From: Massalongia carnosa
Lineage: Eukaryota
Length of the DNA: 64,000 bases
NCBI GenBank assembly: GCA_965645245.1
Contig: OZ287079.1
Span: 1,426,001 to 1,490,000 of the forward strand
Direction of reading: 5' to 3'
Below the pieces are notes generated by a model. It was given only the letters and a program-made list of their open reading frames with translations. It had not been told where the DNA came from and ran no database searches. A program made the translations under genes and the position numbers. Shown here piece by piece: positions 1 to 53,396 of this stretch; position 1 is the stretch's first letter, and the number at the start of each line of letters is the position of its first letter.

Positions 1-451
1 ATATCACCAACAACGAAAAGAAGATATCACGTGAGTCGAAGCCTCCTGCGACATGAGCCCTAGGGGGAGGATAATGTCAGGACCTGCCATAGAGACTACG
101 GAGAAGGATACGGAAAAGGGGCATCAGCATGGACTCGGCCGCCGAACCCGGCCCGACCCTAATGGGCTGATTCCGCTGTCGGCCACATGCCGTCGAGGGG
201 GGACGGCTGGCGAGGGGGACGGCTGGAAACCCATGTCGGATGGCACTAACCGCCCAAAGGGGCCGGGAGCCATTTGGACCAATCAGATAGCTGGGGGCTA
301 TCCGATAAGGGAGTCTTAGGGGGAGACACGTCTGTAGGATAAAGAGGTCGATGCCCACCTTATTCTAAGGGCATAGATCAATAACATACATTATTGAGAC
401 ACCCCCTTCACGTGACCAACACGCCCTCTGAGTAGAAGCATACGTCTTACA
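1..451 (+). mobile_element. 3' end of Ty3/gypsy LTR retrotransposon A: polypurine tract plus 3' LTR (75-451), inserted into the integrase of element B
   Basis: PPT AGGGGGAGGATAA at 62-74 is followed directly by TGTCAGG (75). The segment ends TCTTACA at 451 (TG...CA with short imperfect terminal inverted repeat). Integrase codons of another element resume immediately after. Confidence 0.8.
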
Positions 452-453
452 CC

Positions 454-1506
454 GTGGCATATGATGCGATTCTTGTCATGGTGGATCGGTATACCAAATA
501 TTCTCGATATATTCCCGCACGAAAGGACTGGAATGCTGAAATCATGGCTGACGTCCTAGTGGAAGAAATATTTACCAAATTCGGTATGCCAGTGTCTATT
601 GTCTCGGATAGGGGTAGTTTATTCACCTCAAAGTACTGGTCTCATTTCTGTTATCATTTGAGAATTCGACTCAGTTACAGTACAGCCTTTCATCCACAAA
701 CGGATGGTCAAACCGAGAGACAAAATCAGACACTGGAACAATATCTACGATGCTACGTCAATTATCAACAGGATGACTGGACTTACTGGTTACCCTTGGC
801 AGAATTCGCTTATAATAATAGCTTACATAGTGTCATAAAAATGACCCCCTTCGAAGCTATATTTGGAGAAGCGCCCAAATGGGAAGATGAAGTTCTGACT
901 GAAAAGGGGTCCGAGGTTCCTGCTGCACGCGTCCTGGCTACTGACATAATAGACAAAAGAAAACACCTGGAGAAATTATTACAAACAGCTTCAAGTACCC
1001 AGGCTAAATATTATGATCAGAAACATATTCCCAAGACGTATAATGTGGGTGATAAAGTCCTCCTGAACGCAAAAAATATTAAATCCACTCGTCCGTCCAA
1101 AAAACTGGACTACAAATATTACGGGCCATACGAAATTGTCTCTCCTATAGGAAAACAGGCCTACAAACTCCAACTTTCTCCGTTATTGAAGGGTATTCAT
1201 AATGTGTTCCATGTTTCCCTATTGGAACCTTATAGATATGACCCGAACAAAATATCTGAACCGCCTCTACCTATAGAAGTAGAAGGGGAAGAACAATGGG
1301 AGGTAGAACAGGTGCTGGATAGTAGAATTCACTATGGAAAACTCCAATATCTAGTGAAATGGATGGGATTTTCTGATACGGATAATCAATGGTTATCCGT
1401 AGAAGACATGGAAGGATCACAGGAATTAATTATTTCCTATCATAATCAATATCCGGAAAAACCTTCCAGAACTCCTACGAGGAAGAAAAGAAAATCGAAG
1501 GTATGA
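454..1506 (+). mobile_element. Ty3/gypsy (chromovirus) pol C-terminus of element B: integrase core, GPY/F domain and chromodomain
   Basis: DDE triad in VDRYTK / VSDRG / QTER; YYGPYEI and HNVFHVSLL; chromodomain EQWEVEQVLDSR..YLVKWMGF. No internal stops. 5' part cut off by the element A insertion. Confidence 0.95.
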
Positions 1507-1679
1507 ACCATTTCCATTGGAGTCGAATGATCCAGGATCAGACTGCTATCTACCACACCACAACCACCTTCTCTCACCCCTTCACCCCCTTTTCAATCCA
1601 CCAAAATATCCTCCCCTGGAGGGGGTCCAACCTCTAATCCGGCCTAAAAGTGTCAAAAAATGATTAAATTAATTCGACA

Positions 1680-2151
1680 CTAGATCTCCACCAAGAGATG
1701 AGCCACCGAGCAGCGGAAATTGACTGGAACCTACCCAAATTAGATCAAATTTTCCATAACAGAGCTCCACCTACCGGAAAACATTTATCCTTCTTCCGGC
1801 GACACTCCCCACACTTCCCCGACTCCTCGGACCACTCACAGGCGACAGGGTCGCCCCCAAGGGTCTGCTTGGCACACCGGAGGCAAACGCTTACCTCCGG
1901 GGTAGGCCCCACCCAAATGGGCGGGTGGAGGAGCGGAAAAGGGGGAGGCAGAGGGGAACCGCCACGAACCGGGGCGGAAACGGGTGGCGCGGCGGGGGAA
2001 CCACGACACCCAGGAAAACATGGTCCTGCGGACCAGGAGTGGTTGGGCGGCGGGGGCGAGGAGGGGGGGAAACGGCCGGGTGGAACCGCTTGGCCCGCGA
2101 TGAACGGGCAGAAACCGGAACAACACGCCGAGGTTGTTTAGACCTCGACAT
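1680..2151 (-). other. Antisense spliced accessory gene of element B encoding a Zn2Cys6-like six-cysteine cluster (probably frameshifted)
   Basis: Minus frame 1885-1781 reads CLRCAKQTLGGDPVACEWSEESGKCGECRRKKDKC, then FP, a GTAGGT..CTAAT..TAG intron (1774-1731) and VPVNFRCSVAHLL. The ATG at 2151 opens MSRSKQPRR.. in a different frame. Confidence 0.55.
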
Positions 2152-2510
2152 GAGAGTTGATGATAGAGTGGTTGATGGTAAAGTGATGAAAGATTGATGA
2201 AAATATGAAGTACGGAGTTGGGTAAGGTGATGTTTGAAGAGAAAGAAACAACGAACCCTACCTGTTGATATGAAAAGAAAGAAGACACTAAGCCCACAAC
2301 AACAACAAAGGGTTAAGACTGATGAGACGTCAACAAACAAATAAGAAAGAGTTGAGACTTGGACTCGTGACAGCAAGCATGACTTCTAGACTGAACACGG
2401 ATAACGTGTGTCTGAAGATGCTATCCCTAGTACTCGGGCAGTACCCAGAACCACTTGCGACATGAAGTTATACAGAACTTCCACATCGGGCTCCTGAGGA
2501 CATGAGCCCT

Positions 2511-2735
2511 AGGAGGGTAATGTCAGGGCACGCACGTCCTGACATAAGCGAATCGGTAGTTATAACCGATCTCCGATCTCCGACTAGGACACGGCTCGTG
2601 TTCGTATTCTTCTTTTCATTGTACCAATCATAATCACTGTAATTAAATCAACGGACTCGCGACCCGAAGAAGTGGGGCTATAGGATAAAGACCTGATCCA
2701 TATAGTAGTCACGCTGTTAGACTTGACCCCTTACA
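2511..2735 (+). mobile_element. PPT plus 3' LTR (2521-2735) of element B
   Basis: AGGAGGGTAA (2511-2520), then TGTCAGGG ... CCCTTACA (7/8 terminal inverted match). Pogo transposase codons follow immediately. Confidence 0.8.
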
Positions 2736-3851
2736 CTATCCCATTTTTTTAAGTAGCCACTGCCAACAGCATCGTTTTGTTTCGATTACCAGCTCATTCT
2801 ACTCACCTCACCCAGCCATTGGACGTAGGTGTTTTTCAACCGTTCAAACACTATCACACCGAGGCAATAGATTGGGCTGTCCGGTTGGGGGACTGTCAGT
2901 TTGGTAAGCTGGAATTTCTCGCTGCATTTCAAGGCTTCCGAAATGAAACGTTCAAACCATCCACCATCCGTCATGCGTTCAAATCAACCGGTATCGTACC
3001 GTTTGACCCAAACGTTGTCCTGGACAAAATTCGAGAAAAGGAGGCACGATTGAGGGAGTCAGTCATTCGAACTCCCTCCCCCCCCCCATTTCCATTAAAT
3101 CAACGCATACCCCATGGGCCAGAATCGGTTGTTCGGTACGGTCGAAAGCTTCAGAGAGCCATTGCCAAAGCGGGACCCAATAATAAACTGGAGGTTCAAC
3201 AGGTTGAACGGTTCGTTCGCGGTTCGGTGGCATCCGCCCATGCTCTAGATTTGATCACTTGAGACCTTTATGCCATGCAGGAAGCAGCTTCATCACGTCA
3301 GAAACGAGCCGTTCTTGGTGGACAGGTGGCCTCTCAGGGTGGAATCATCAAGGTAAGTCAGTGTTGGGAGCTTTGTTCAAAAAGAAAGCAGAAGGAGGAG
3401 AAAAAGGCGAAACGGAAGAAGGCTAGTGTAACGGTTCGACCAAGCGTGGTGCGGACGGCAGGACCTACAGCGAACATAGCAGGAGTCCCAGTTATAGTAG
3501 AATAGAGCTTGGTCTGCGGACTAAGTATTGTGCCTTTGGTCTGGAGGACAGGTGGCGCAATGGTAGAAATCTATTCACTATATCGCTTCGTCACAGCTAG
3601 GGGGGAGAAAGCGACTGAGAAAAAAATATTCTCAGCTGAATCAAATAGCCTTTCTCATCAACGACACACCTTTGGTAGATTAGTCAATTCCCTACGTATC
3701 AAAAATGAAACATTCACAAGCGGGGTTGTTTTGATGATGTGGTGAATTGTTTGGTGGGTAGATGGTAAAAAAAACGACAATGAGCCCAATGCGTCATTGA
3801 GATGGCAAGCACTAAGGAATGCCCTTCCATTCCGAAAGTGGTTTAACACGA
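2736..3851 (+). mobile_element. Degenerate pogo/Fot1 DNA transposon, 3' half (DDE_1 transposase pseudogene)
   Basis: RLPAHSTHLTQPLDVGVFQPFK and IRHAFKSTGIVPFDP are Fot1/pogo motifs. In-frame stops at 2750 and 3260. The right end near 3850 (..GTGGTTTAACACG) is approximate. Confidence 0.85.
3427..3595. mobile_element. Solo LTR (169 bp) inside the pogo transposase
   Basis: TGTAACG...CGTCACA termini with exact 5-bp TSD GCTAG (3422-3426 and 3596-3600). Removing it rejoins KRKKA-RGEKATEKK in frame. Confidence 0.9.
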
Positions 3852-3857
3852 TTAGCC

Positions 3858-3882
3858 GCCATAGTCATAGACCTATTCAACA
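3858..3882 (+). repeat. 25-bp direct repeat, copy 1 (probable transposon terminus)
   Basis: GCCATAGTCATAGACCTATTCAACA is identical to 7737-7761. Confidence 0.75.
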
Positions 3883-4395
3883 ATTTTTGATGTCCGGATT
3901 GAGTTTTCAGAGAAATTTTCGATGACGAAAAAGCACTTTTGTGGCGAAAACTCAACCCGTTGCGCGGCGTAATTATAGAAAATTTGATAAAAAATAAACA
4001 TCAAAAGCTGAAGTTTCGACCTTGTTGTTATTATTTTGAATGATCTGCCTATAGCATTTTTAACGCTAAATCTACGTGGCGTTTTTAGCCCGCATTAGCG
4101 TATTATCAGGACTTTGGGTGTCAACCTCTCATCCTCTGTAGAGTCGTTATCCAAAGCCACAATTGAATACCAATGTTCGTACTCGTACTTTACCAAATAC
4201 GGAGTATAATGACGGAGTATAATGACGTCTATCTTGACTGAAACCCCCCTTTGTACTCCGTATGGAGTATCCTCTACAGAATACGATTGACACGTCTGTT
4301 AACTATTGTCCAGAGTACTTGTAGTAACCACGGTTCTTATTCTTATGCAATATTTACTTGGATTTTCATAACCTATCGTCAGCCACAACATATGA

Positions 4396-5640
4396 ATGCA
4401 GCCTCAGATGAAAAAGAATAGCGAAGATGCGTTCCCCTGGCATCTTCAGGTGTTTGACGCACACTGTCATCCCACCGACACCATCTCATCCATCAAAACC
4501 ATTCCCACGATGAAGGCTGCAGCATTAACCATCATGGCAACAAGGGCGCAAGATCAAGAGCTGGTAGCGCAATGTGCAAAGGTTTATGGCGCGACAAGTT
4601 CTTCATTTGTTTCGGATGTGACTATGGATAAGAATATTGATACTAGCAAAGAAACCCCTTGTCAAGTCGTTCCCTCGTTTGGCTGGCATCCTTGGTTTTC
4701 TCATCATATCTATGATGATTCGAGTTTTGGTGCCTCACAGATTTCCGGAAACCTCGACAAGTTGGATCATTACAAGGCTATTCTTATTCCGTTCCCTGAT
4801 GATCTTGAATTTCTCCAGACCCTCCCCGCTCCACGGCCGCTATCAGATTATATCGCCCAGACCCGCACGTATCTCCAAAAGTTCCCGTTCGCGCTTGTGG
4901 GTGAAATTGGGCTCGATCGTAGCTTTCGTATTCCCGAGCATCCCCCACTAGGCGCTGGTGACGATGTGAGTTCTACATTAACTCCAGGAGGTCGAGAAGG
5001 TCGACAGTTAAGCCCATACCGAGTCCATATGGACCACCAGAAGCGCATCTTTAAAGCGCAGTTAAACCTTGCCGGGGAAATGTCAAGACCTGTGTCTGTG
5101 CACGGGGTCGCCGCTCATGGGACAGTCTTCACGACTTTACAAGAAATCTGGAGAGGGCACGAGAAGCCTGTCGTTAGTAAGCGAGCCAGAAAGAGGAGTC
5201 TCAGTGTGGCTCAAGTGCGAGCAAAGGCGGACGAGACTGAAGAAGAGAAAAAAGTATTGGATTTGCCAGGCTCAAATCCTTTTCCTCCTCGAATCTGCCT
5301 TCACTCTTATTCCGGTCCTCCAGATACAGTTAAACAGTATCTTCATCCATCCGTCCCTGCAACTATCTTTTACTCATTTTCTCAAATCATAAATTTCTCA
5401 TCTTCCGATCCTTCAAAAGTCATTGAAGTCATCAGGGCCATACCAGATGACAGGCTACTTGCCGAGAGTGACACTCACTGTGCTGGAGAGCGAATGGATG
5501 GCTTCTTGGAGCAGAGCGTAAGGTCCATTTGTCAGATTAAGGGGTGGTCGCTCCAGGAAGGGGTTCGGCAACTCGCGTCCAACTGGGTAAATTTTGTTTT
5601 CGGGAAGTATCCTCTCGAGCACCAAAAGGTTGATACCTGA
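4396..5640 (+). CDS. TatD-family metal-dependent hydrolase (Cut9-interacting Scn1-like)
   Basis: FDAHCHP, FGWHPW, VGEIGLD, SVH, CLHSYSG and LAESD motifs; single 414-aa ORF. Confidence 0.9.
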   Translation: MQPQMKKNSEDAFPWHLQVFDAHCHPTDTISSIKTIPTMKAAALTIMATRAQDQELVAQCAKVYGATSSSFVSDVTMDKNIDTSKETPCQVVPSFGWHPWFSHHIYDDSSFGASQISGNLDKLDHYKAILIPFPDDLEFLQTLPAPRPLSDYIAQTRTYLQKFPFALVGEIGLDRSFRIPEHPPLGAGDDVSSTLTPGGREGRQLSPYRVHMDHQKRIFKAQLNLAGEMSRPVSVHGVAAHGTVFTTLQEIWRGHEKPVVSKRARKRSLSVAQVRAKADETEEEKKVLDLPGSNPFPPRICLHSYSGPPDTVKQYLHPSVPATIFYSFSQIINFSSSDPSKVIEVIRAIPDDRLLAESDTHCAGERMDGFLEQSVRSICQIKGWSLQEGVRQLASNWVNFVFGKYPLEHQKVDT

Positions 5641-7736
5641 GTAATATCCTCAAATACGCAATAAAGTCGTATGGGAAGATACCCGTTTTGACATATATTT
5701 GGGTCAACCGTAAGTTATACAAAGGAAGTGGTATTTCAACTTCCTCCATAACATAAATTGGCATTCTTTTCTCTAGGACATGTTCACTAGCTCAATTCTT
5801 TTAACTCATTTTCACCCCATATCGTCTTTTCGGCGTTCACAGACCTACAATCCTCCCCAGCGGTGCTGCAATTCGGGACTCTTGTTTTACCGTTCAGTCT
5901 GTCGACAATAAACTGTTTGAAACTTTGGTCGGATTTTTCATGCCTCAGGCAAGGCTGAAAAGCCCTGATGAGAAAATTGTTGGCAAGCAGCGAATAGAGA
6001 ACGTGTTATCATTGATAGACTTGAACGACATTCATCGTACCCTATTGGCAATAGGAGAACAATCCAGAATATTGAGCGCAGAAGTGAATACCCAGGTCAT
6101 TCGTTTTGAAGTAATCCAAAGCGAGCAAAGTGAACACCTGACCTGTTCTGGTTGAAGTCTTTATTTTATTATACTCTTTCCAATTCAATCAATCAGCTTT
6201 TTGACGTCCAGGATACAACATCGCTGTTCAGTCAACTAGCTTGTGTTACTCAATATAGTTATGACCATAACTAAATGAAAACTCTGGATAGGGTGAACAA
6301 AGTAAGGTAGGTGTGTTCACGTAATAGCCGCTATTCAATCATCCCCCATTTTAACAATAACAGATCTTCGCGTAGTCATTGAGTTCTTGTCGATTAAGAT
6401 GGCAATGAAAATAGAAGCAATGAGTATGAGAAACTGCTAAACCAGAAGGCTACCTTATTTTCTTGAGGAATCTGATAGAGACAACATCGACTGCATGCGC
6501 CTCTTGTTCTCTAATCCTATCAACGTACCAAAGGTCCTCAACTACAAATTGAACGTAACACGGTTGCAAAGAAGGGGGGAGTCAAAAGAGTGCTAGCCTA
6601 GCCGGTCTAGGACCCTTACAAGAAACAGCCAGCTGGGCATCACTACCACTACTGTATAAAAAGCAATGGAGGTAGGGCGGCGCAAACGCAATCAAATGAT
6701 CTCGGGCTTCCCTCATAGCTCCGCAACTCTACCACTAGGTCTTCAATATGAGGACATAATCAAGCAATATTCAAACTATCTGCGTGGCCTTCTGTTGCTG
6801 GAAATCGCAGTCACCTGGACGGCGAGGAAGATCAGCGTGGCGAGCGCGCGACCGGAGCTCACCACAAACACCATGACCAAAAGAATCGCTGCCGCCGAAG
6901 TCACCAAGAACGGATCACGAAGCAAGTCGGCAAGAAGGGCTAGGATCTTATTCAGAGCGAAAGTTTAAGATATTGGAACATCAAACGTATCTCAAAAGCA
7001 GGCAGACCCAGTAGAAGCATGTACGGAATCCGAAGCAAGCCTGAGATTCCGAATGGAGCAAACAGACCTCCAGGACACCATGACAGAGCTTGACCCTTCC
7101 TGGACATGTCGCCAAGCGAATGGCTGTAGTAAGAAGAACTCGGAACTAGACCGCGTGCTGTTTGAGAGAGCAATACAAGAGCGTCAAAGAAGGATACGCT
7201 TGGTTCATCAACACGAAGGAGGAAATTAGCAGTCGCAGAAAAATGTTTGTTGGAAAGTGATTTCGAAATTTGAGCAAGGAATACATAGCTATATTTGAGC
7301 AATATGGGATAATATTTAGGTGGCCAGGGTCTGGTCTTAATTCTTTATTTCCATCACAGAAGTAATAGCGGATGCTATGATGTGATGCCTAAGTCTAAGT
7401 ACCTCGTACGTATTATTTGATACATGCTCCATTTTTTGAAAATAGGAGGGATAGGTGGAGAATGATGGACCCAATTCACAGAAAATAGATGGCAGAGTGC
7501 CAGAAGTCTCTGGATAGTACAGAACTTGTTGAATGTTCAACTTCTACCAGCATTGCCTAGCCGATAGATTAGATAATATCAGATCTAATCTAAGCGCATA
7601 GAGGCTCGGATAAACTATTATCATCTCGCTTAGCAGAGGTGACCAAGATAAAGGAACAGATTGCTCTGCACTCCGTAGCAACTCTGCATCCTTAACATCA
7701 TGGTCATACAGGCCCCTATCTTTACATAGTCATATA

Positions 7737-23877: not shown

Positions 23878-25719
23878 ATGTCAGAACAAGGTGCCCCTGG
23901 TGGTCCAGTTAGCGGAGCAGGAGATGTGCAAGCGCCGATAGATTCTAACTACACCTCCTACGAAAATCTAAATAATACGTTGTCAAGTTCGCCACATGCG
24001 AATGATCAAGAAGACGTTTCGAATAAACGCAAGAGGCAAGACCTAAGACCTCGGTCTCGGGTGAAGCGACTTAGAGCATTTTACAACGATGACTACCGGA
24101 AACTTCTCAATGAAACTGTGCATGATGTGGTTGGAGGGACGCCTGTAGAGGAGACTGAAATGTTGCGGCCCACCCAGATTGGTATCACTTGGTGGTCCTC
24201 TCAGGAGAAAGATGTCTTCTTCAGCGCACTTGCAAAACGAGGTAGGGACGACTGTCCGAGGATCGCCGCCGCCATCGGTACGAAGACGGAGCTCGAAGTA
24301 CACGTCTATCTTCGGCTATTACAAAAGGCTTCACAAGAGCAGCACGTATTTTCTCCTCGGGATCATCTGTTCGACCCTTGTGATACACCCGCAGCTTTTG
24401 AGGTAAGCCATGAATGCTGCGATATGCTTGAGCTCCCAGCGGATGCTTTGTCGGTGTTGCAGCAGAGAGAGGAAGAGAAGCTGGAGAAGAAAAAGTTTGA
24501 GAAAATCTGGCTGCTAGATGAAAAAACCATCCTTGCGTTCAATAAACGACAGGGTGAAGGGAGGGATGGCACTGCAGAAATCGTAGAGTATTTACCTGCA
24601 GCCGAACTTTTGAACCCTCTGAGTTTCGTCAAATTGTCTAAATCTGTTTTCATGAACTCCAGCGCAGCAGATGACAACTGGCGTTCGTATTGCGGGCCGA
24701 AAGAAAGTCCCTCGATTCTGTATACAGCCTTCTCGGATTTTCATAGATTGGCAACTAGTGTCACGAAGCGGTTGATTCAATCGGCTTTGTTCTTCGCAAT
24801 GTCTCGTATAAGAGCTACCACCACCTCGAGATACGTACCGAAAAGCGCGGTCAGGCAGCAGGACATCTACACAGCACTCCGAGTTCTGGGTATGCAACCC
24901 AATGCTCGAAGTTTCTGGGTTGGAGCTGCTCGGAGGTGTAACCTGGCTGTTCGGGATGGCCACAACGATAAAGACACCAATAATAAAATGCTAACCCATG
25001 ATGAGGTTGAGAGGCTGATGAACCAAGATGTTAAAGACCAAACGGCAAGCTATAGCGAAGATTCACAAGCTGAGGACATTGTACGAGTATTTGACACAAC
25101 CACACCACCGTTAGAAGCCGATCCAGACCAATCCCTATCTGACAGCACCTCCAACTTCTCTCTCAATGCAGCCTCCACCTCCCCCGACAGCGAATCTTCC
25201 GAATCCCCTAGCGAAGACGAAAGTCTCGCGTCTGATCCCGACGCTTCGGAAGAAGCCCAAGACACCTACGCCGAAGCCGTTGACCGGCAAAGCAGCCAGC
25301 GCGAGGAACTCCGTCTGCGGAGGATGCTTGGCCATGAGCCCCCTGAATACATGAAGCCTGAGGAACTGCATATCCCCAAGCGGCCGAAGCCGGAGCGAAA
25401 GGTGGGAGACGACCTGGATGACTGGCGAGCTTGGGTGGATTACGCCCCCGAGTGGGAAACTTACGAGGTTCCCATCCCGGCCAGCAGCTTTTTTGGTAGG
25501 AGACGCCGAGGGAGCAGCGGGGGGGAAATGGATCGATCTCGTTCTTACCGGAGCCGTGCTCGAGCCGGGGGTAGCAGCGGGGATGATGAGATGGAGGATG
25601 AAGAGGCCGACTCGTCGGCGAACACGAGTCGGACACGTCCCGCTGGTAGCGTATCGGTGGATGGTAGCGATGATGGGGAGGAATCCTTATCAGATTCCGG
25701 CGGAGGGGATTCGGTTTGA
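23878..25719 (+). CDS. RRN5: RNA polymerase I upstream activation factor subunit Rrn5-like (Myb-like domain)
   Basis: SANT-like block TQIGITWWSSQEKDVFFSALAKRGR..IAAAIGTKTELEV; PAAFEVS; FSDFHRLATSVTKRLIQ; FWVGAARRC. Confidence 0.8.
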   Translation: MSEQGAPGGPVSGAGDVQAPIDSNYTSYENLNNTLSSSPHANDQEDVSNKRKRQDLRPRSRVKRLRAFYNDDYRKLLNETVHDVVGGTPVEETEMLRPTQIGITWWSSQEKDVFFSALAKRGRDDCPRIAAAIGTKTELEVHVYLRLLQKASQEQHVFSPRDHLFDPCDTPAAFEVSHECCDMLELPADALSVLQQREEEKLEKKKFEKIWLLDEKTILAFNKRQGEGRDGTAEIVEYLPAAELLNPLSFVKLSKSVFMNSSAADDNWRSYCGPKESPSILYTAFSDFHRLATSVTKRLIQSALFFAMSRIRATTTSRYVPKSAVRQQDIYTALRVLGMQPNARSFWVGAARRCNLAVRDGHNDKDTNNKMLTHDEVERLMNQDVKDQTASYSEDSQAEDIVRVFDTTTPPLEADPDQSLSDSTSNFSLNAASTSPDSESSESPSEDESLASDPDASEEAQDTYAEAVDRQSSQREELRLRRMLGHEPPEYMKPEELHIPKRPKPERKVGDDLDDWRAWVDYAPEWETYEVPIPASSFFGRRRRGSSGGEMDRSRSYRSRARAGGSSGDDEMEDEEADSSANTSRTRPAGSVSVDGSDDGEESLSDSGGGDSV

Positions 25720-45474: not shown

Positions 45475-48400
45475 GATGACTGGAATAACTACGTTGAAAG
45501 TTCATACAAACGACAATCGAAAGGATATCATTAACCGCACTATCCTATAGACTGCAAAAGGCGGTCTGAAGGGGAGGAGGGCCATTAGCTACTGCACTAA
45601 ATTCTGGTGTGTGGTCCAATTCTGTCGCTTTTTTTTTTTACCGCGCAGTTTCGGGGTTCAAAGTTCGGCACACCATTTTGCAAACGGGTGTATGATCCAG
45701 GGCAACTCGCCTTCCGTGGTATTAAGAAGAATCCGGGGAATTAATCGCGTTTCACCGTTGAATCCTCCTCCCAAAATCTTTCCCTCTAGATAGGTCCGCG
45801 AAATGTGAGTAAGACGTAATCGGGTGCCGTTATAGAGACCAAGTTTGGGATACAAATTCCGCAACAAAATAATTGGAGCTCCAAGTTTTAGTTGCAATGT
45901 GAAGGCGGTAAAGATAATGTTTGCAAGGTTTGTAAAAACTCGGGAGGAAGAAAGTCTCCTCGTTCCTGCGCCGTATCGTTCTCTATTTGATCAACGGAAT
46001 TCAAGGTGTGCGAAGCGCCCTGCAATGTATTCAGTACTGCACCGTTTAACTCCGAGACGATATCGTTTCGCAAAGTCAAAATTGCTCGACTTGCGAAAAA
46101 ATCCGCATCCAGATGAGCTTGCCGCATGCGATCCGAAGGAAAAACGGTGTCCACGAAACTGTCTAAGTTGTTCAATTGATTGACTTGTTCCGGTAGCTGA
46201 ACACGACCGTAAAAAGCAGGATCATAAGACATTTTCCCGATCCAGTCCGCAAACGCCTCATTGGCGACTCCTTTACGAATTCGCATGTTTTGACGCAAAA
46301 ACAGTTTTTGAAATCGCGGCCACAGAAAGGTCCTTTGAATGTTCGCCGCAACGATGGCTTCCCGATTTCCACGGGGAACAACGGGCAGGATTTGAGCGAA
46401 ATCTCCGCCTAACACCATCGGAATACCTCCGAAAAGATCGTCGTTGCCTAAAAGATCCGTAAAAGTGCGATGTACGGCCATGAAGCATTGTTTGTGTTGC
46501 ATCGGCACCTCATCCCAAATGATTAATGCTGTGCGTTGCAAAAGACGGTGTAAATGCTTGTTGCGGGTGATATTACACATGTTGTCCTCATTTAAAATCA
46601 AAGGAATTTTAAAACGGGAATGTGAAGTCTGTCCGCCAGGAAGAAGTAAAGCCGCAATGCCGGAAGACGCAACGCAAAGAACGATTTTATTCTCCGCCCG
46701 AAAATGATTGCAAAGAGTCTTATACAAAAAAGTCTTACCTGTTCCTGCAGGTCCGTGAACAAAAAAATGCGCCGTTCTAGGATGATCTCTAACTCCCGCA
46801 ACAATGGTATCAAAACAGTATTTCTGATCCGCATTCAATTGAGTATATCGTTCATTTCGTAACGTCGTTGAAATCGTTGAAATCGTAAGTCATTTCATTT
46901 GCGATCAACGGATTTCCAGTACTCCGACCCCAATCGTACGTGAACAGCGGCATATTATAATCCTCTAACCTAAATCCGAAAGAACTCCGTTTAACAAATA
47001 AAGGCCGTAATCTAAATGCGGACTCATTAAATCGTCAGGAACATCAGTCATTGATCGTAATCGATGCGGTAAATCGTCACATATATCATTTGCGTATCGA
47101 TTCCATAAGGCCATGGGATCCGTAACACGACCGTGAACCAAAGCCGTTCCAAATAACGCCCGCAATGCGTGTCCAGAAGAAAATCGCACCACTTCCGCAA
47201 AGCAACTAAACCATTCCTGATCATCTTCCAACAGTCCTCGAGCACTGCAAGCGGCCTAAAATGTTGATTACATCACTCCGTCAACAGTGCGCAGATCCTC
47301 AAAGGACTGCGGTCCCGGAACAACCGTTAAAAGTATCCGCAAATAATATTTCTCACCCGCCATAGGACTGCGGACATAAATACGACCAACCGCAAATCCA
47401 CGTTGACGGGGTTGCCAGCATTTTTTCTTGGCTTCCCAAACTTGATACAACAACTCGCGGCCGTCCGCGTGGAGTCTGTTATAATTGAAAAATGCTATCA
47501 ACTTTGTAACGGATCGATTTAAGGTGTTATGCAAATCTATAATATCCGCATCCGCGCTGAAATATACGGACTGTTGATCCGGCAAATGAATCAGAAGATG
47601 GTAAACCGCAGGAAACTCCTCGTGCGAAGGATACTCCCATAACTGCCATGCGGCTTGAGTGGGACCGATATAACGACCGTTTAAATGTCTCGCGATTTCG
47701 TCGTCAAATCCGTCAATCTGCACAGTAGCTCGATCTGCGCCTTTGTAAATATATTTATGAATATATTTGACTGCTTTAACGGTCGCGCAGACCTCGACAT
47801 TAATATGAGCTTCATATTTGCGAGAAAGATACGGATTATACGGAACCACCCAGCGATTGTCGCAACGAAAAACCCGACCACCACTCATCGGAACCTCCCA
47901 GGTGCGACCATCATTGCGGCGACGATTTATCGGATAACCATCCTCTTCAACAACAGTTGTTTCCTGAAACGGGCAAGGATAACGCTTGGAACAGGTGGGA
48001 GACCCGGATTCGGTTTGCATACAGGACGCGGTAGGCATTGCAGCTCCGCAAGGACCGTGAACCATTTGTTTAATGATGATCTGTCTTAAACTTCCATCCG
48101 TATCAAGAGCAGGATCCGGCAGTTCGGCGGAAATTATTTGATCAATACGACCCGCATCCATAAAACGCTCATGCGGATGTAGAAATAACAGCAAATACAT
48201 ATGCGGTAATCCTCGTTTTTGATATTCGATGGTCCATACACATCCGCGAAATCGACCGAAAATGTTGTCCTTTTTCAATTCCTTCAACAAACTGCTCTGT
48301 CGCAGTCGAAAAGCGCGCGCCACAATGTCCGGTCGATCCGTTGCGGTTTGTCCAGGAAAGTCCTTTAATGCTTCCTTGATTTCCGGCCAGTTAGGATTTG

Positions 48401-50398
48401 CGGTAAACGTAATAAACAAATCCGGCCGCCCAAAATGACGAACCAAGGCCATACTGTCCTGAAAAAATTGCTGCATGAACCGATCTCCGCTCGTATATGT
48501 GGAAGGAAGAATAAATCGCTTTCCTAATGTCGCTGCAGAATCGACTTCATCCCGCCGCAAACTATCCGCGAGTCCGTTATACAGCTCCGCTCTGATCGTT
48601 TTTTGATTTTCACGTAATCATTGCAGTTTGTTAAGATCGCAACTGGCCCACGCATCAACTAAATATTGCTGAAAAAATCGCTGACAATGATGCATGATAG
48701 AGAATTCATTTCGACGGGTGTGCAAACGATATCTGTAAAACGCCCGTTGACATAAACGATCTCGTTCTCTTTCTCTAGCATTGGACCGAAGCCGCATACT
48801 CTAATCCCAGCCATGTTCGCCATGCGGAAATAAAAGACCGTAATGTAAAGGCATATAAGCCGCATGATTTTGATCAATCCGCTTCAAAGAAGTTCCCGTA
48901 ACTCCGGCAACACGTTCCGTCAAATTATATCGCGTTTGCAAGGTTCTCCGTATTCATCAGGAATAATACCGGCAATCTCGTCGCTGATGGGAAGATTACT
49001 GCGTCGTCGATCCGCCCCCGCTTTCATGATCAATCGCATTTGCGGATTGAGAACAATTCGCAGATCATCGGTTGTGGTCGCATTCTCTCGCAAAGCCTCG
49101 CTGGCGGTTTTGTAAAGCCTGATAAAGGGATTCATATTGTGCAACATTTCTGTTAAACGTCGTACAATGTCGGGATCCAATTCTGTATGTTGTCGAATAC
49201 GAATTGCGGTTGTTTCGTCGGGATCGTAAAAAAACAGTTGAGCAAAGCGAGGAGAATCGTCAACAGGATCCAAAGGACCTTGCAGGTGATACAGTTCTCC
49301 GTGAATTTGAAAACACACGGTCCACGACCGTTGCGAGGAAGTCGGCGATCGGGTTTGTAGTCTACGGAGGTGAACGTCAACGCGGAATTATATTTTCGGA
49401 GGTTTTTGCGAAATGCGCGGGATCTAACATCGTCATCAACAGTTGCCGTAAAAAATCAGGAGGCTGAAACGGTGGCAACACGACATCACCTCGCTTGCAA
49501 CAGGACTCGTATTCTCGATCGCGTCTTCTATAACCATGCGGAGCTTCGTCTTTGCAATGCCAGGCACCACAATGTCTACAATGATCATTCATGTGTTGAA
49601 TCTGTCTCATAGCGGACCTTAAATTATACTGACTTTTAAATGCCGCAGGTAAGTCACAATTGGCAACGACACGCTCACGACGGATTTAACGACTTATATC
49701 TCGCGACTCTCGACGATTAGCAGATGAAGAAACGGATCTAAGACTCGCATTTGAAGGAGATACATGTCTGGAAAACGATCTTACGGAATCGTCATTACGA
49801 TTACGAATGTTCTCGTTCTCTTCTGCTTCATTGAGCAGCATTTCTTCCCAAATATTTAGATTTTCCTGTTCGGAACGACCTTGAGACAATGAACTCGGTG
49901 ACAAAAAAGCGGACGATACGGGAGAAGAACTCGCCGCAGAATCATGAAGCGAAAGTTGCGAAGACGCAGAAGATACAACAGGACTTTTGGGAGGCGCAGG
50001 CGGACGTAAATAAAGACGAACGGGAGGTTTTGGAGGCCGTAAAATCAGACGGACGCGTTTCGCAGGTGGATTTTCTGGTTCATTCAAATCACTAAGCGGT
50101 CTGCGGGGAGAACCCGACTGTCGTATAGGAATGGGAAGTCGAGAAGTGATCTCCAGTCGTGGGAAGAAACTGATCGTAAAGACATGACTGTAATAACTGT
50201 AATTGTTGCAACTGTTAGATGAAGTTGTGAGAAGAAAACGGACACGGAATAAACTTAATTGAGACTTGAACTAAACCAAATCGAGGTTTTAGTGAAACGG
50301 TCCGGTACGGCGGTCGAGGCAAGAGGGAGTTTTTGGTCCTGTCCGCACGACGTCCTCTCCGCATTAAACGGTAATTCAGTACTATAGAGAAGAAGCAG

Positions 50399-51198: not shown

Positions 51199-53396
51199 TC
51201 AAACCCATCGCATATCCACCTTCAGGGCATGGCTCCGATGGCGTAACAATAAAACCAACCGATCGTCGTTCTCAGCTCGTTCGAAGAGTAGGGGCTGATT
51301 CGTCGGCAATGCTCCGACATCAACAGGAATCCCCAAGGCGTTCCCCCCCCCATTTTCAGTATGCTGTACCGTTACTTGGCCTTGGCCCAGACCTTCAAAT
51401 TCAACCCTTGCAAACAGCTTGCCAGCCGCCACTTTGAGCGGAGTGCTGCTAGAGATTGCCTTGTCGATTGGGGATTGGCAGGATACGATGGTGCTCAAGG
51501 AACACGTTGAAATGCTCGTAAGGACGGGGGGCAAAGTCTCGGAAACATCGTGGGAATGTGCCGGGACAGGAAACCGAGGTTGGGAGAGAGTGGAGGAGAG
51601 ATCTGTTGGTTTTACTTTTGGAGCTGAGAACCTAGGACGTTGGGGCGATGTACCACCAGAGGCGTGCTTGGCGGAAGTGGCCGAGATCCCTGATCTAGGC
51701 GCGAAAAAACACATCATGTTTGATTGAGGAAGTACGGAGGCAGAATGTGGGACAGGAGAACCTTTTCTCCCAGCATCAAGCTGCAGAGTCGAAATATCTG
51801 AGCTGGTGGTAGAGGAAGATGAAGATCGTTGTGACGGGATAACAGGCTCGTCGCGCATAGTAGAAGGTTCAGCACGAGCAATCGAAGGATCTCGCTGCTC
51901 ACCAGGTTGTACCGTTGATTGAGCCGGGGATGACTCTGCCTCGTGCTTAATATTTGGGGTACAATCCGATATCAACGTTCCCACATCTGAAGGTAAAGGC
52001 GATATTGTTTGGCCCTTTGGTAAGTTGACGGTACTGGTCAGCGGATAATCTCGATGTGCTCTGCGCTTACGAGCAGCAGTGATATCCTCCCGAATTTTCT
52101 TATGCATCGTCGCTAGTAGACGGCGATATTCATCCACTTGATTTGCACCAAAGGCCGCTAGATCTGGTACGTTCCATTGGTTATATAAACGCCCGTGTGT
52201 TTTGGTGATAAAGTACTGGCCTTGGCTGAGAAGAAACAGGCTGCATAGATAACACGCGGATTTGCTAACCCCTAGAACCCGCGGTCTCGTCCTGGGAGCA
52301 TTAGAACATAGGCCATAGAAAGTGACCAGTTGAATTTCAGCATGTACAAAGTATGAAACTCGTTTGCCTTGGATGGTCGAAAGAGACGGCGTGATGCCTT
52401 GGTAAGCGGGTAGTATTTTGAGGTCAAGAGCCTTGAACAACGCACTAAATCGCACGGAAGACTTGGCCATATAGACACACAAGCCCCAGTATCGCCCGAT
52501 TTTATCGACCTGCTGAATGCATTTATTGTTGCACACAAGCCTGGGCTCAAGACCGTACGCACGAATTGCTCCTTCAAGCGCGAATTTGCCATCCAAGGTA
52601 CATAGATCATAACTTTCTATCACAACTTTCTTCATCAACAGCAAGTGTCGATTCGTGTTCACTTTAGCCTTATCTATACATCGAAAGGATTCGCATAGAT
52701 TATCCAGCCTTTGAACGAGGGAACTTGAATACCTTTGAGCAAAAGGGAGCCAACTGGTTAGTTGCTGAGAGACTTTCCGAATTTCCTGATACAAGGGCTC
52801 AGGCGCTGCGTTACTTCGATAGCCCGGTGGATTCCAATGCGCAGACTGAAGCCGACCATGAATGCGTTTTTGGCTCAGTACCATCACATGATCGAAAAGA
52901 CTCTTTGCACACGCTTTGCGAAGTAGCTCTGTGGCCGCGTGAATGAGTCGCTGATTGAATTCAAGCTGAATCACCAATACGCACTTTTCGAAGCACACTG
53001 TCTAAGCAAATCAAACATCGCCTTGAACGTATCGGGAACACCCTTGGGCACGGTTTCGTTGGCAGCGAGCCTTACGACCAGACCAGCCGGATCAACACTT
53101 TCCTCCAATGCTACTGCGGAGACCGCCTTCACACCTTCATCGGCGGCGGCAAGGAATGCGAAGTCATCGGCAAGCCGTTGCTCGACTTGGAAAGGCAAAA
53201 TACGGGATGGGTCATCTTGGCGAATTCTTGGATTGCGCCATTCTTCCCTAGTATGGACTTTTGGATCGCAAGGGACTTCGTTCGAATCTTGTTGGAGAGT
53301 GCTAATATCATTTCTGAAAGTCGCTTGACTCAGGCCTCGCCAGATTGAAGCTCTTGCAGTTGCAGTATTCACTTTTTGTAGCTGATCACGAGACAT
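51199..53396 (-). CDS. OTT_1508-like nucleic acid/nucleotide deaminase
   Basis: Zn-deaminase motifs VHAEIQLV and LGVSKSACYLC; N-terminal LADDFAFLAA..VSAVALEE..RLAAN. Intron 52984-52929 (GTGCGT..CAG) joins the two ORFs in frame. Confidence 0.85.

Follow-up and report, generated by a model that had tools for sequence, protein, structure and literature searches.

A 64,000-nucleotide (nt) stretch of Massalongia carnosa DNA (assembly GCA_965645245.1, contig OZ287079.1, positions 1,426,001 to 1,490,000 of the forward strand; hereafter the window, the coordinates of which are used throughout) holds near its start the 3' part of a long terminal repeat (LTR) retrotransposon, here called element B. In the stretch that separates the pol stop of the element from its 3' LTR, the opposite strand encodes a protein segment with six cysteines. 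We consider it probable that this is a two-exon antisense accessory gene of an LTR-element family, encoding a Zn2Cys6-like protein with a putative role in tuning the LTR, and that the window holds a dead copy of it.

A Probable Antisense Gene of Element B

In the 3' part of the element B pol (454–1506, plus strand, with the stop at 1506), Pfam identifies an integrase core (rve, 1.4e-09), a Tf2-type SH3 domain (SH3_Tf2-1, 8e-21), and a chromodomain (Chromo, 1e-11); element B is therefore a Ty3/gypsy chromovirus. Between this stop and the polypurine tract (PPT) and LTR lies a spacer of ~1 kb, in which a preliminary description of the DNA had suspected a hidden, spliced, Zn2Cys6-like gene. The features on which that proposal was built (the long spacer, the cysteine cluster, a 44-nt intron candidate with a continuing frame, and a basic N-terminus preceded by a pyrimidine-rich leader) can all be read from the sequence as it described them. 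The gene spans 2151–1680 on the minus strand. Its leader (2152–2300) is rich in C and T and is presumed to be a 5' untranslated region (UTR) or a core promoter, the promoter role being presumptive. The candidate start codon, ATG 2151, opens the proximal part of exon 1 (1999–2151; 51 codons), a basic, Pro/Arg-rich frame beginning M-S-R-S-K-Q-P-R-R, which closes at 1891 and lies one frame off the cysteine frame. The two meet at a T/C homopolymer run (1991–2000; minus strand TTCCCCCGCC) that varies in length among copies and is the frameshift site of the window copy. The distal part of exon 1 (1775–1998) consists of a Pro-rich linker, the six-Cys domain, and the end C-F-P; the cluster itself, C-x2-C-x11-C-x8-C-x2-C-x6-C, occupies 1885–1781 within the open reading frame (ORF) 1745–1912. 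A predicted phase-0 intron of 44 nt follows (1731–1774), with GTAGGT at 1774–1769, CTAAT at 1743–1739, and TAG at 1733–1731, and then a predicted exon 2 of 16 codons (VPVNFRCSVAHLLVEI; 1680–1730) that ends in a TAG stop at 1682–1680. From there to the pol stop (1507–1679) extends a presumed 3' UTR or terminator region, AT-rich right behind the stop.

The association of the gene with the element is not peculiar to the window. Sister copies were viewed through protein ORF calls and through contigs of four public runs (X1, X2, X4, and X5), which are too fragmentary for proportions. Contigs joining pol, gene, and LTR in other copies occur at high depth in X1 (1424–2550) and X5 (1780–2512), all 30 depth bins are covered in all four runs, and the cluster recurs in ten additional ORF calls made on other copies. 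Most copies of the element thus have the gene, and its placing by the preliminary description in the 3' region of a chromovirus is supported.

An Unnamed Gene Family of the Pezizomycotina

A word-based search with the window frame returned two ORF calls from other copies, P0001 (97% identity) and P0002 (90%), and, with a weak E-value and a like cysteine pattern, P0003, which is among the hypothetical proteins of Pseudogymnoascus; a BLASTP comparison of P0003 with the window ORF yields 2e-10. A profile of the trimmed domain (alignment A2), run against 1.84 billion representative proteins at E<=1e-3, matched 71 proteins, and the 67 that match the whole domain were kept. P0037, P0068, P0077, and P0079, long repetitive proteins matching part of the profile only, were dropped. 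The family signature is C-L-R-C-A-K, a third cysteine after 10–12 residues, and then (K)C-x-R-C-x3-K-x-K-C-x-P. The complete six-Cys pattern is found in 64 of the 75 family proteins, always within a module of 35–37 residues, and the six cysteines are invariant across the 62 aligned members. Because the first search had been seeded with window-type sequences, a second profile was built from 58 members, excluding the window, P0001, P0002, and P0017. This independent profile matches the window ORF 1748–2137 (minus strand) with E=6e-15 (51 bits), the next best of the 1,584 six-frame ORFs of the window reaching E=0.3.

All named members are annotated as "hypothetical protein" and come from Pseudogymnoascus, Chlorociboria, Glutinoglossum, Emmonsiellopsis, and Onygenales, that is, from the Pezizomycotina; Pfam has no model for the family, as judged from the window ORF and 18 relatives. 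The proteins are small (about 140–380 amino acids), lack the middle homology region of fungal transcription factors, and in full-length members carry a helical C-terminal part of ~100 amino acids behind the module. P0017 (60% identity to the window version) is open from its methionine into the domain; the N-terminal frame of the window showed no significant similarity to it, and basic N-termini of like character open other relatives (P0053, P0038, P0012, and the ORF 3671–4042 of a metagenome locus, L001, described below). Many members lie on contigs of 0.6–4 kb, as repeats do. Leads from the ESM Atlas all scored below 0.9 (e.g., DUF3716 at 0.76) and were not borne out by the Pfam scans. With good confidence, we assign the antisense frame to an unnamed gene family of the Pezizomycotina rather than to a chance ORF.

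It should be noted that C is abundant in the segment 1700–2150 and that several frames are open there on either strand, so that open frames in it are no evidence by themselves. One could accordingly suppose a chance frame in low-complexity DNA with cysteines placed by accident, and Pfam offers nothing significant to the contrary: it has no family for the N-terminal frame, for the plus-strand ORF 1698–2138, or for the overlapping minus-strand ORF 1836–2297. This supposition is already refuted by the BLASTP match to P0003, the profile search of 1.84 billion proteins, and the match of the independent profile, to which the conserved donor position described below can be added; we give it next to no credence. 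The same conservation bears on the idea that the antisense RNA is the functional product, serving to control copy number or to supply small RNAs, with an incidental reading frame. Antisense transcripts are generally known to regulate other LTR elements (retroviral cases are given in PMC10186651), and many copies of the gene have broken frames. However, the six cysteines together with several Lys/Arg residues are kept at 25–45% protein identity across more than 60 members, with the spacing of 35–37 residues maintained; this indicates constraint at the protein level, which an RNA function leaves unexplained, and makes a purely RNA-based role very unlikely.

Predicted Fold of the Cysteine Module

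The six cysteines fall into two C-x2-C...C halves, as in canonical Zn2Cys6 domains. An AlphaFold2 model of 55 residues from the window, calculated with the 62 aligned members, has a predicted local distance difference test (pLDDT) score of 74.5 and shows two short helices after each C-x2-C. Searched against the PDB with Foldseek, it finds Zn2Cys6 domains in 14 of the 20 best matches listed (Pho7, Gal4, Leu3, Ppr1, Hap1, and Put3), with template modeling (TM) scores of 0.45–0.56 and a root-mean-square deviation of 1.4–2.6 Å over 38–47 alignment columns. In VIA-align, all ten chains with Z of at least 2 among 48,161 are Zn2Cys6 domains, superposing at 1.7–4.4 Å over 33–50 residues. The model of the full-length member P0053 (pLDDT 80.9) combines the module with three long helices, and Foldseek matched its C-terminal part to generic helical bundles only.

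The canonical Gal4-type spacing is C-x2-C-x6-C-x5-12-C-x2-C-x6-8-C. The first loop has x11 in the window copy, and x10–12 is implied for all 64 complete members, outside this spacing. The designation as a Zn2Cys6-like variant in the preliminary description thus has some support in the predicted fold, for which VIA-align matched Zn2Cys6 chains only, at low Z-scores, and does not extend to the canonical spacing or to the threshold of Pfam PF00172. Likeness to Gal4, Ppr1, Leu3, Hap1, Put3, Pho7, and AlcR lies in the six-Cys halves, each with a short helix (predicted in our case); Zn2Cys6 domains are also alike in the basic residues around the second C-x2-C and, for full-length family members, in helices behind the module. 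They differ in the first loop (x6 as against x10–12), and the family described here lacks the middle homology region and is, at least in some members, encoded inside retrotransposons.

A Conserved Intron Position

In the window copy, the codons TGT-TTT-CCG (C-F-P) directly abut GTAGGT at 1774. At the corresponding place, residues +3/+4 after the last cysteine, 50 of the 64 complete members have V-[SGNT], most often within P-V-S, which is the read-through of a GTnAGy or GTnGGn donor; most of the family proteins come from ORF calling that takes no account of introns. The spliced form, [VI]-P at +3/+4, is seen in nine of the 64, in annotated gene models. Two metagenome loci have a GTAAGT donor directly after the +2 codon: L003, with TGT CTT TCG/GTAAGT, an intron of ~53 nt, and AAAAG/GTT CCG, and L001, with TGC TTC CCC/GTAAGT...CTAAT...TAG/CTC CAC; both genes have a further, second intron downstream. 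Since 50 of 64 members show V-[SGNT] and L001 and L003 have GTAAGT there, the donor at 1774 sits at a phase-0 position conserved across the family, and the earlier proposal that the gene is spliced gains in likelihood from this comparison. The putative acceptor at 1731 and exon 2 have weaker support: the predicted exon 2 begins with V-P, its fifth residue is F, and L-L follows at 12–13, like spliced relatives (C-x-P-[VI]-P-x-x-[VF]...LL). An intron joining the ATG frame to the cysteine frame was considered and dropped, as P0017 aligns colinearly with the sequence ahead of the cluster. A second intron behind 1692 (GTGGAG...TTTTAG) was likewise dropped; its donor is poor, and 1690 A>C destroys the GT at most of the depth in X2, X4, and X5.

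Relatives inside Other Retrotransposons

Pattern scans of metagenomes with three alignments differed in yield: A3 was too diverse, A2 gave 129 pattern matches with no confirmed relative, and A4 gave three loci (L001–L003). In L003 (3,562 bp), the cysteine gene runs from 1003 to ~1793 in three exons and ends in an acidic tail; facing it on the opposite strand is a Ty3/gypsy integrase (Integrase_H2C2, 1.5e-19; SH3_Tf2-1, 5e-10). This is the layout of the window, an antisense gene behind a gypsy integrase. In L001 (5,782 bp), the gene (3671 to ~4736, with GTAAGT and GTTAGT introns) is flanked by Ty1/copia parts encoded on the opposite strand. Upstream (3–2973) are a gag and a protease-integrase with gag_pre-integrs, Pol_BBD, SH3_retrovirus, and rve_3, and downstream is an ORF (5353–5781), unnamed by Pfam, which we take to be the copia RNase H end. 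Such an order would be expected if a single copia element, running from the pol end through the accessory gene and LTR to gag, had been collapsed in assembly; L001 is one contig only, which is no proof, and no LTR repeat is present on it. If L001 is one element, both superfamilies, gypsy and copia, share the accessory gene. The third locus, L002, is a short contig that carries nothing but the gene. At least some members of the family ride antisense in LTR retrotransposons.

Variation and Decay among Copies

Among the copies, the T/C run at 1991–2000 occurs in length states of 0 (the window), +1, and +2. An additional A behind 1998 is found in the X1 contig (at all depth) and in some X2 and X4 contigs, and an additional GG behind 1993 in the X5 contig and some X2 contigs; the ORF calls P0001, P0002, and P0086–P0091 also switch frame at the run, by +2 in P0086–P0091. 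P0001 has +1 there and a further +1 near 1960 (net +2), and P0002 has +1 together with shifts that by arithmetic sum to +1. This locates the single frameshift that had been postulated between 2000 and 1900: it is a length change at 1991–2000, and the +1 state fuses the ATG-2151 and cysteine frames. A frameshift-free form, which the preliminary description had recommended seeking in other copies, is represented by the X1 contig (1,161 nt, 1424–2550), which differs from the window by ten substitutions and has gaps only of +30 behind 2296, +1 behind 1998, and +3 behind 2510. Its +1 puts ATG 2151 in the cysteine frame, and the X1 copy is therefore open from the ATG through the cluster, with an intact donor. 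In the +2 copies, the cluster is instead in register with an alternative ATG, which lies at 2022 in a different frame. The window copy is a dead pseudogene copy, belonging to a truncated element and having a one-base change in the T/C run that parts the ATG from the cysteine frame; many copies are decayed, as is usual for retrotransposon copies, and it is among them.

As side observations on these copies, the 30 additional bases behind 2296 are present in both the X1 and X5 contigs, so the window copy has a deletion at this point of the leader, upstream of the ATG of the antisense gene. From another, diverged X1 contig, 1520–1644 is missing. One contig each in X2 and X5, from differently labeled organisms, joins 1329 to 2453 and thereby skips the pol end and the whole gene; the deletion of 1330–2452 has the ends CA..CC, which are not splice-like, and looks like an internally deleted, nonautonomous form of the element.

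A number of observations weigh against a functional, spliced gene for a zinc-cluster protein. Most sampled copies are closed from ATG 2151, the open ones being the X1 contig and, by arithmetic, P0002. P0086–P0089 and P0091 are one G short at the donor and run into a stop right after C-[SY]-P, and P0091 in addition has a Cys-to-Tyr change in the first C-x2-C. A profile of the exon-2 segment fails to find exon 2 of the window (E>50), and no contig of X1, X2, X4, or X5 has the 1774/1731 joint, a negative that is uninformative on splicing as none of the ten runs is on record as RNA. The element B version stops 16 codons past the intron, without the helical C-terminal part of the family, and by eye no frame in 1507–1679 resembles that part. 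The Foldseek E-values are just 1–10, and the VIA-align Z-scores are low (2.2–3.5), as is expected for 40 residues, in a list that is exclusive to Zn2Cys6. The Pfam Zn_clus model reaches 8.2 bits where 21 would be required (E=3.7), and over the second half of the module only, with no match in 18 other members scanned, and a profile search of the PDB sequences gave no match at E<=10. Finally, some family members (P0024 and the P0056 cluster) lie on large contigs, are conserved between strains, and may be host genes.

Several of these points would suit a relic, in which a fragment of a host gene of the Cys6 family was captured once by a chromovirus lineage and has since decayed without a role, its conservation being that of recent copies only. 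The frameshifts, the donor loss, and the Cys-to-Tyr change among copies, the tail truncated relative to full-length members, and the possible host genes in the family agree with this, and the lineage with the broken donor has still multiplied, the deletion making up 23–43% of the depth in X2, X4, and X5 (none in X1). Against it stand the antisense genes in the distant gypsy element of L003 and beside the copia parts of L001, with introns and full-length frames intact, and P0017, which at 60% identity is open from its methionine into the domain. Moreover, no common variant falls in 1780–1997 among those listed, whereas the flanks have many. We regard a relic as rather improbable.

Genomic Context of Element B

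Element B is 5'-truncated and begins abruptly at 446, right behind the LTR of another element. Its PPT (GCCCTAGGAGGGTAA) lies at 2505–2520 and its 3' LTR (216 bp, TGTCAG...CTTACA) at 2521–2736, both on the plus strand. The LTR borders are backed by the public contigs, in which depth rises 5- to 10-fold from 2525 and sequences are unlike before 2521 and behind 2735–2737. Within the U3 side of the LTR (2554–2582) is the motif CGG-N9-CCG-N4-CCG-N4-CCG, of the kind of site bound by Gal4-type proteins, which is expected often by chance and is not used here as evidence; position 2581 is C>T in some copies of the public contigs.

Occupying 1–445 is the 3' end of a further LTR element, related to the first, with the same purine motif at ~57–74 and a 371-bp LTR at 75–445 (TGTCAG...CTTACA); its internal part falls outside the window, and it abuts element B at 446. 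Directly behind the element B LTR is a fragment of a DDE_1 (pogo/Tc1-like) transposase (2777–3259; Pfam 9e-06). The window thus opens with several transposon fragments heaped together, and bases 1–3000 are not repeated elsewhere in the 64 kb. The remainder consists of ordinary fungal genes and a Helitron fragment, the latter at 45891–48560 on the minus strand, where neighboring ORFs match Helitron_like_N (7.7e-41) and a PIF1-like helicase (1.7e-67). A 599-amino-acid ORF (51202–52998, minus strand) has an OTT_1508-like deaminase domain (6e-18), its remainder being without a Pfam match, and a 613-amino-acid ORF (23878–25716, plus strand) has no Pfam family at E<=0.001.

A Putative Regulator and Its Counterparts

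We propose that the 1-kb stretch between pol and LTR holds a two-exon accessory gene on the opposite strand for a small protein of nuclear type, consisting of a basic, Pro-rich N-terminus, a module of 35–37 residues with six cysteines folding like Zn2Cys6, and here a short tail. As the intron is antisense, it is not a substrate for splicing in the sense genomic RNA and is therefore copied at each retrotransposition, as is established. The basic N-terminus would direct the protein into the nucleus, where it may bind two zinc ions and DNA as Gal4-type modules do, or else a DNA-bound host factor, and would act as an activator or repressor on the LTR of its own element, tuning transcription. In this it could correspond, in fungi, to the antisense factors of retroviruses such as HBZ. 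This regulatory mechanism, like the DNA-binding regulator or anti-silencing factor supposed in the preliminary description, is a tentative suggestion, to which we assign somewhat less than an even chance. Broader still, and doubtful at present, is the idea that gypsy and copia elements share a mobile, intron-bearing antisense gene for a Zn2Cys6-like factor that recognizes the LTR of its own element and sets its expression or silencing, with some "hypothetical proteins" of the Pezizomycotina being domesticated or donor copies.

Additional genes in this position have been described. The Boty element of Botrytis and Sclerotinia has an extra antisense gene, brtn, between pol and the 3' LTR (PMC8365987, PMC7264820, PMC4227169). 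Like element B, Boty is a fungal, chromodomain-bearing gypsy element with a gene on the opposite strand, a likeness drawn from the published description. The Cys6 family may be that of brtn, although it differs in occurring also beside copia parts and in several classes of Pezizomycotina. In plants, antisense ORFs between pol and the 3' LTR are known from maize Grande, rice RIRE2, Silene Retand, and PvRetro13, and agree with the gene described here in position, orientation, presence in most copies of the family, and a function that is unknown; they belong to non-chromovirus lineages, and a relation to zinc clusters is not stated in the available part of the source (PMC7264820). HBZ of HTLV-1 (a human T-cell leukemia virus) is a spliced, nuclear basic leucine zipper (bZIP) factor made antisense from the 3' LTR, which damps transcription from the 5' LTR, and APH-2/3/4 are grouped with it as nuclear factors that are likewise spliced and of antisense 3' LTR origin (PMC10186651). 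Likeness to HBZ lies in a minus-strand, intron-bearing gene of a retroelement with product features of a transcription factor. HBZ differs in being a bZIP protein of a vertebrate retrovirus that feeds back on LTR-driven expression, a feedback that for element B is an analogy only. None of the papers reached by our literature search, which did not extend to bioRxiv or other supplements, connects an antisense LTR-retrotransposon gene to a zinc cluster.

LTR retrotransposons seldom carry accessory genes, and a function is known for hardly any of these. The accessory gene described here has a recognizable, predicted Gal4-like fold, a conserved intron, and more than 60 members that are unnamed in domain libraries, and its antisense position recurs in unrelated lineages of elements. 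ORF tracks miss the gene because of its intron and C-rich leader, and the family profile lets annotators spot it; some of the "hypothetical proteins" of fungal genomes may be retrotransposon genes. If the proposed mechanism is true, a retrotransposon of fungi may supply a transcription factor of its own, in the way that HTLV-1 supplies HBZ.

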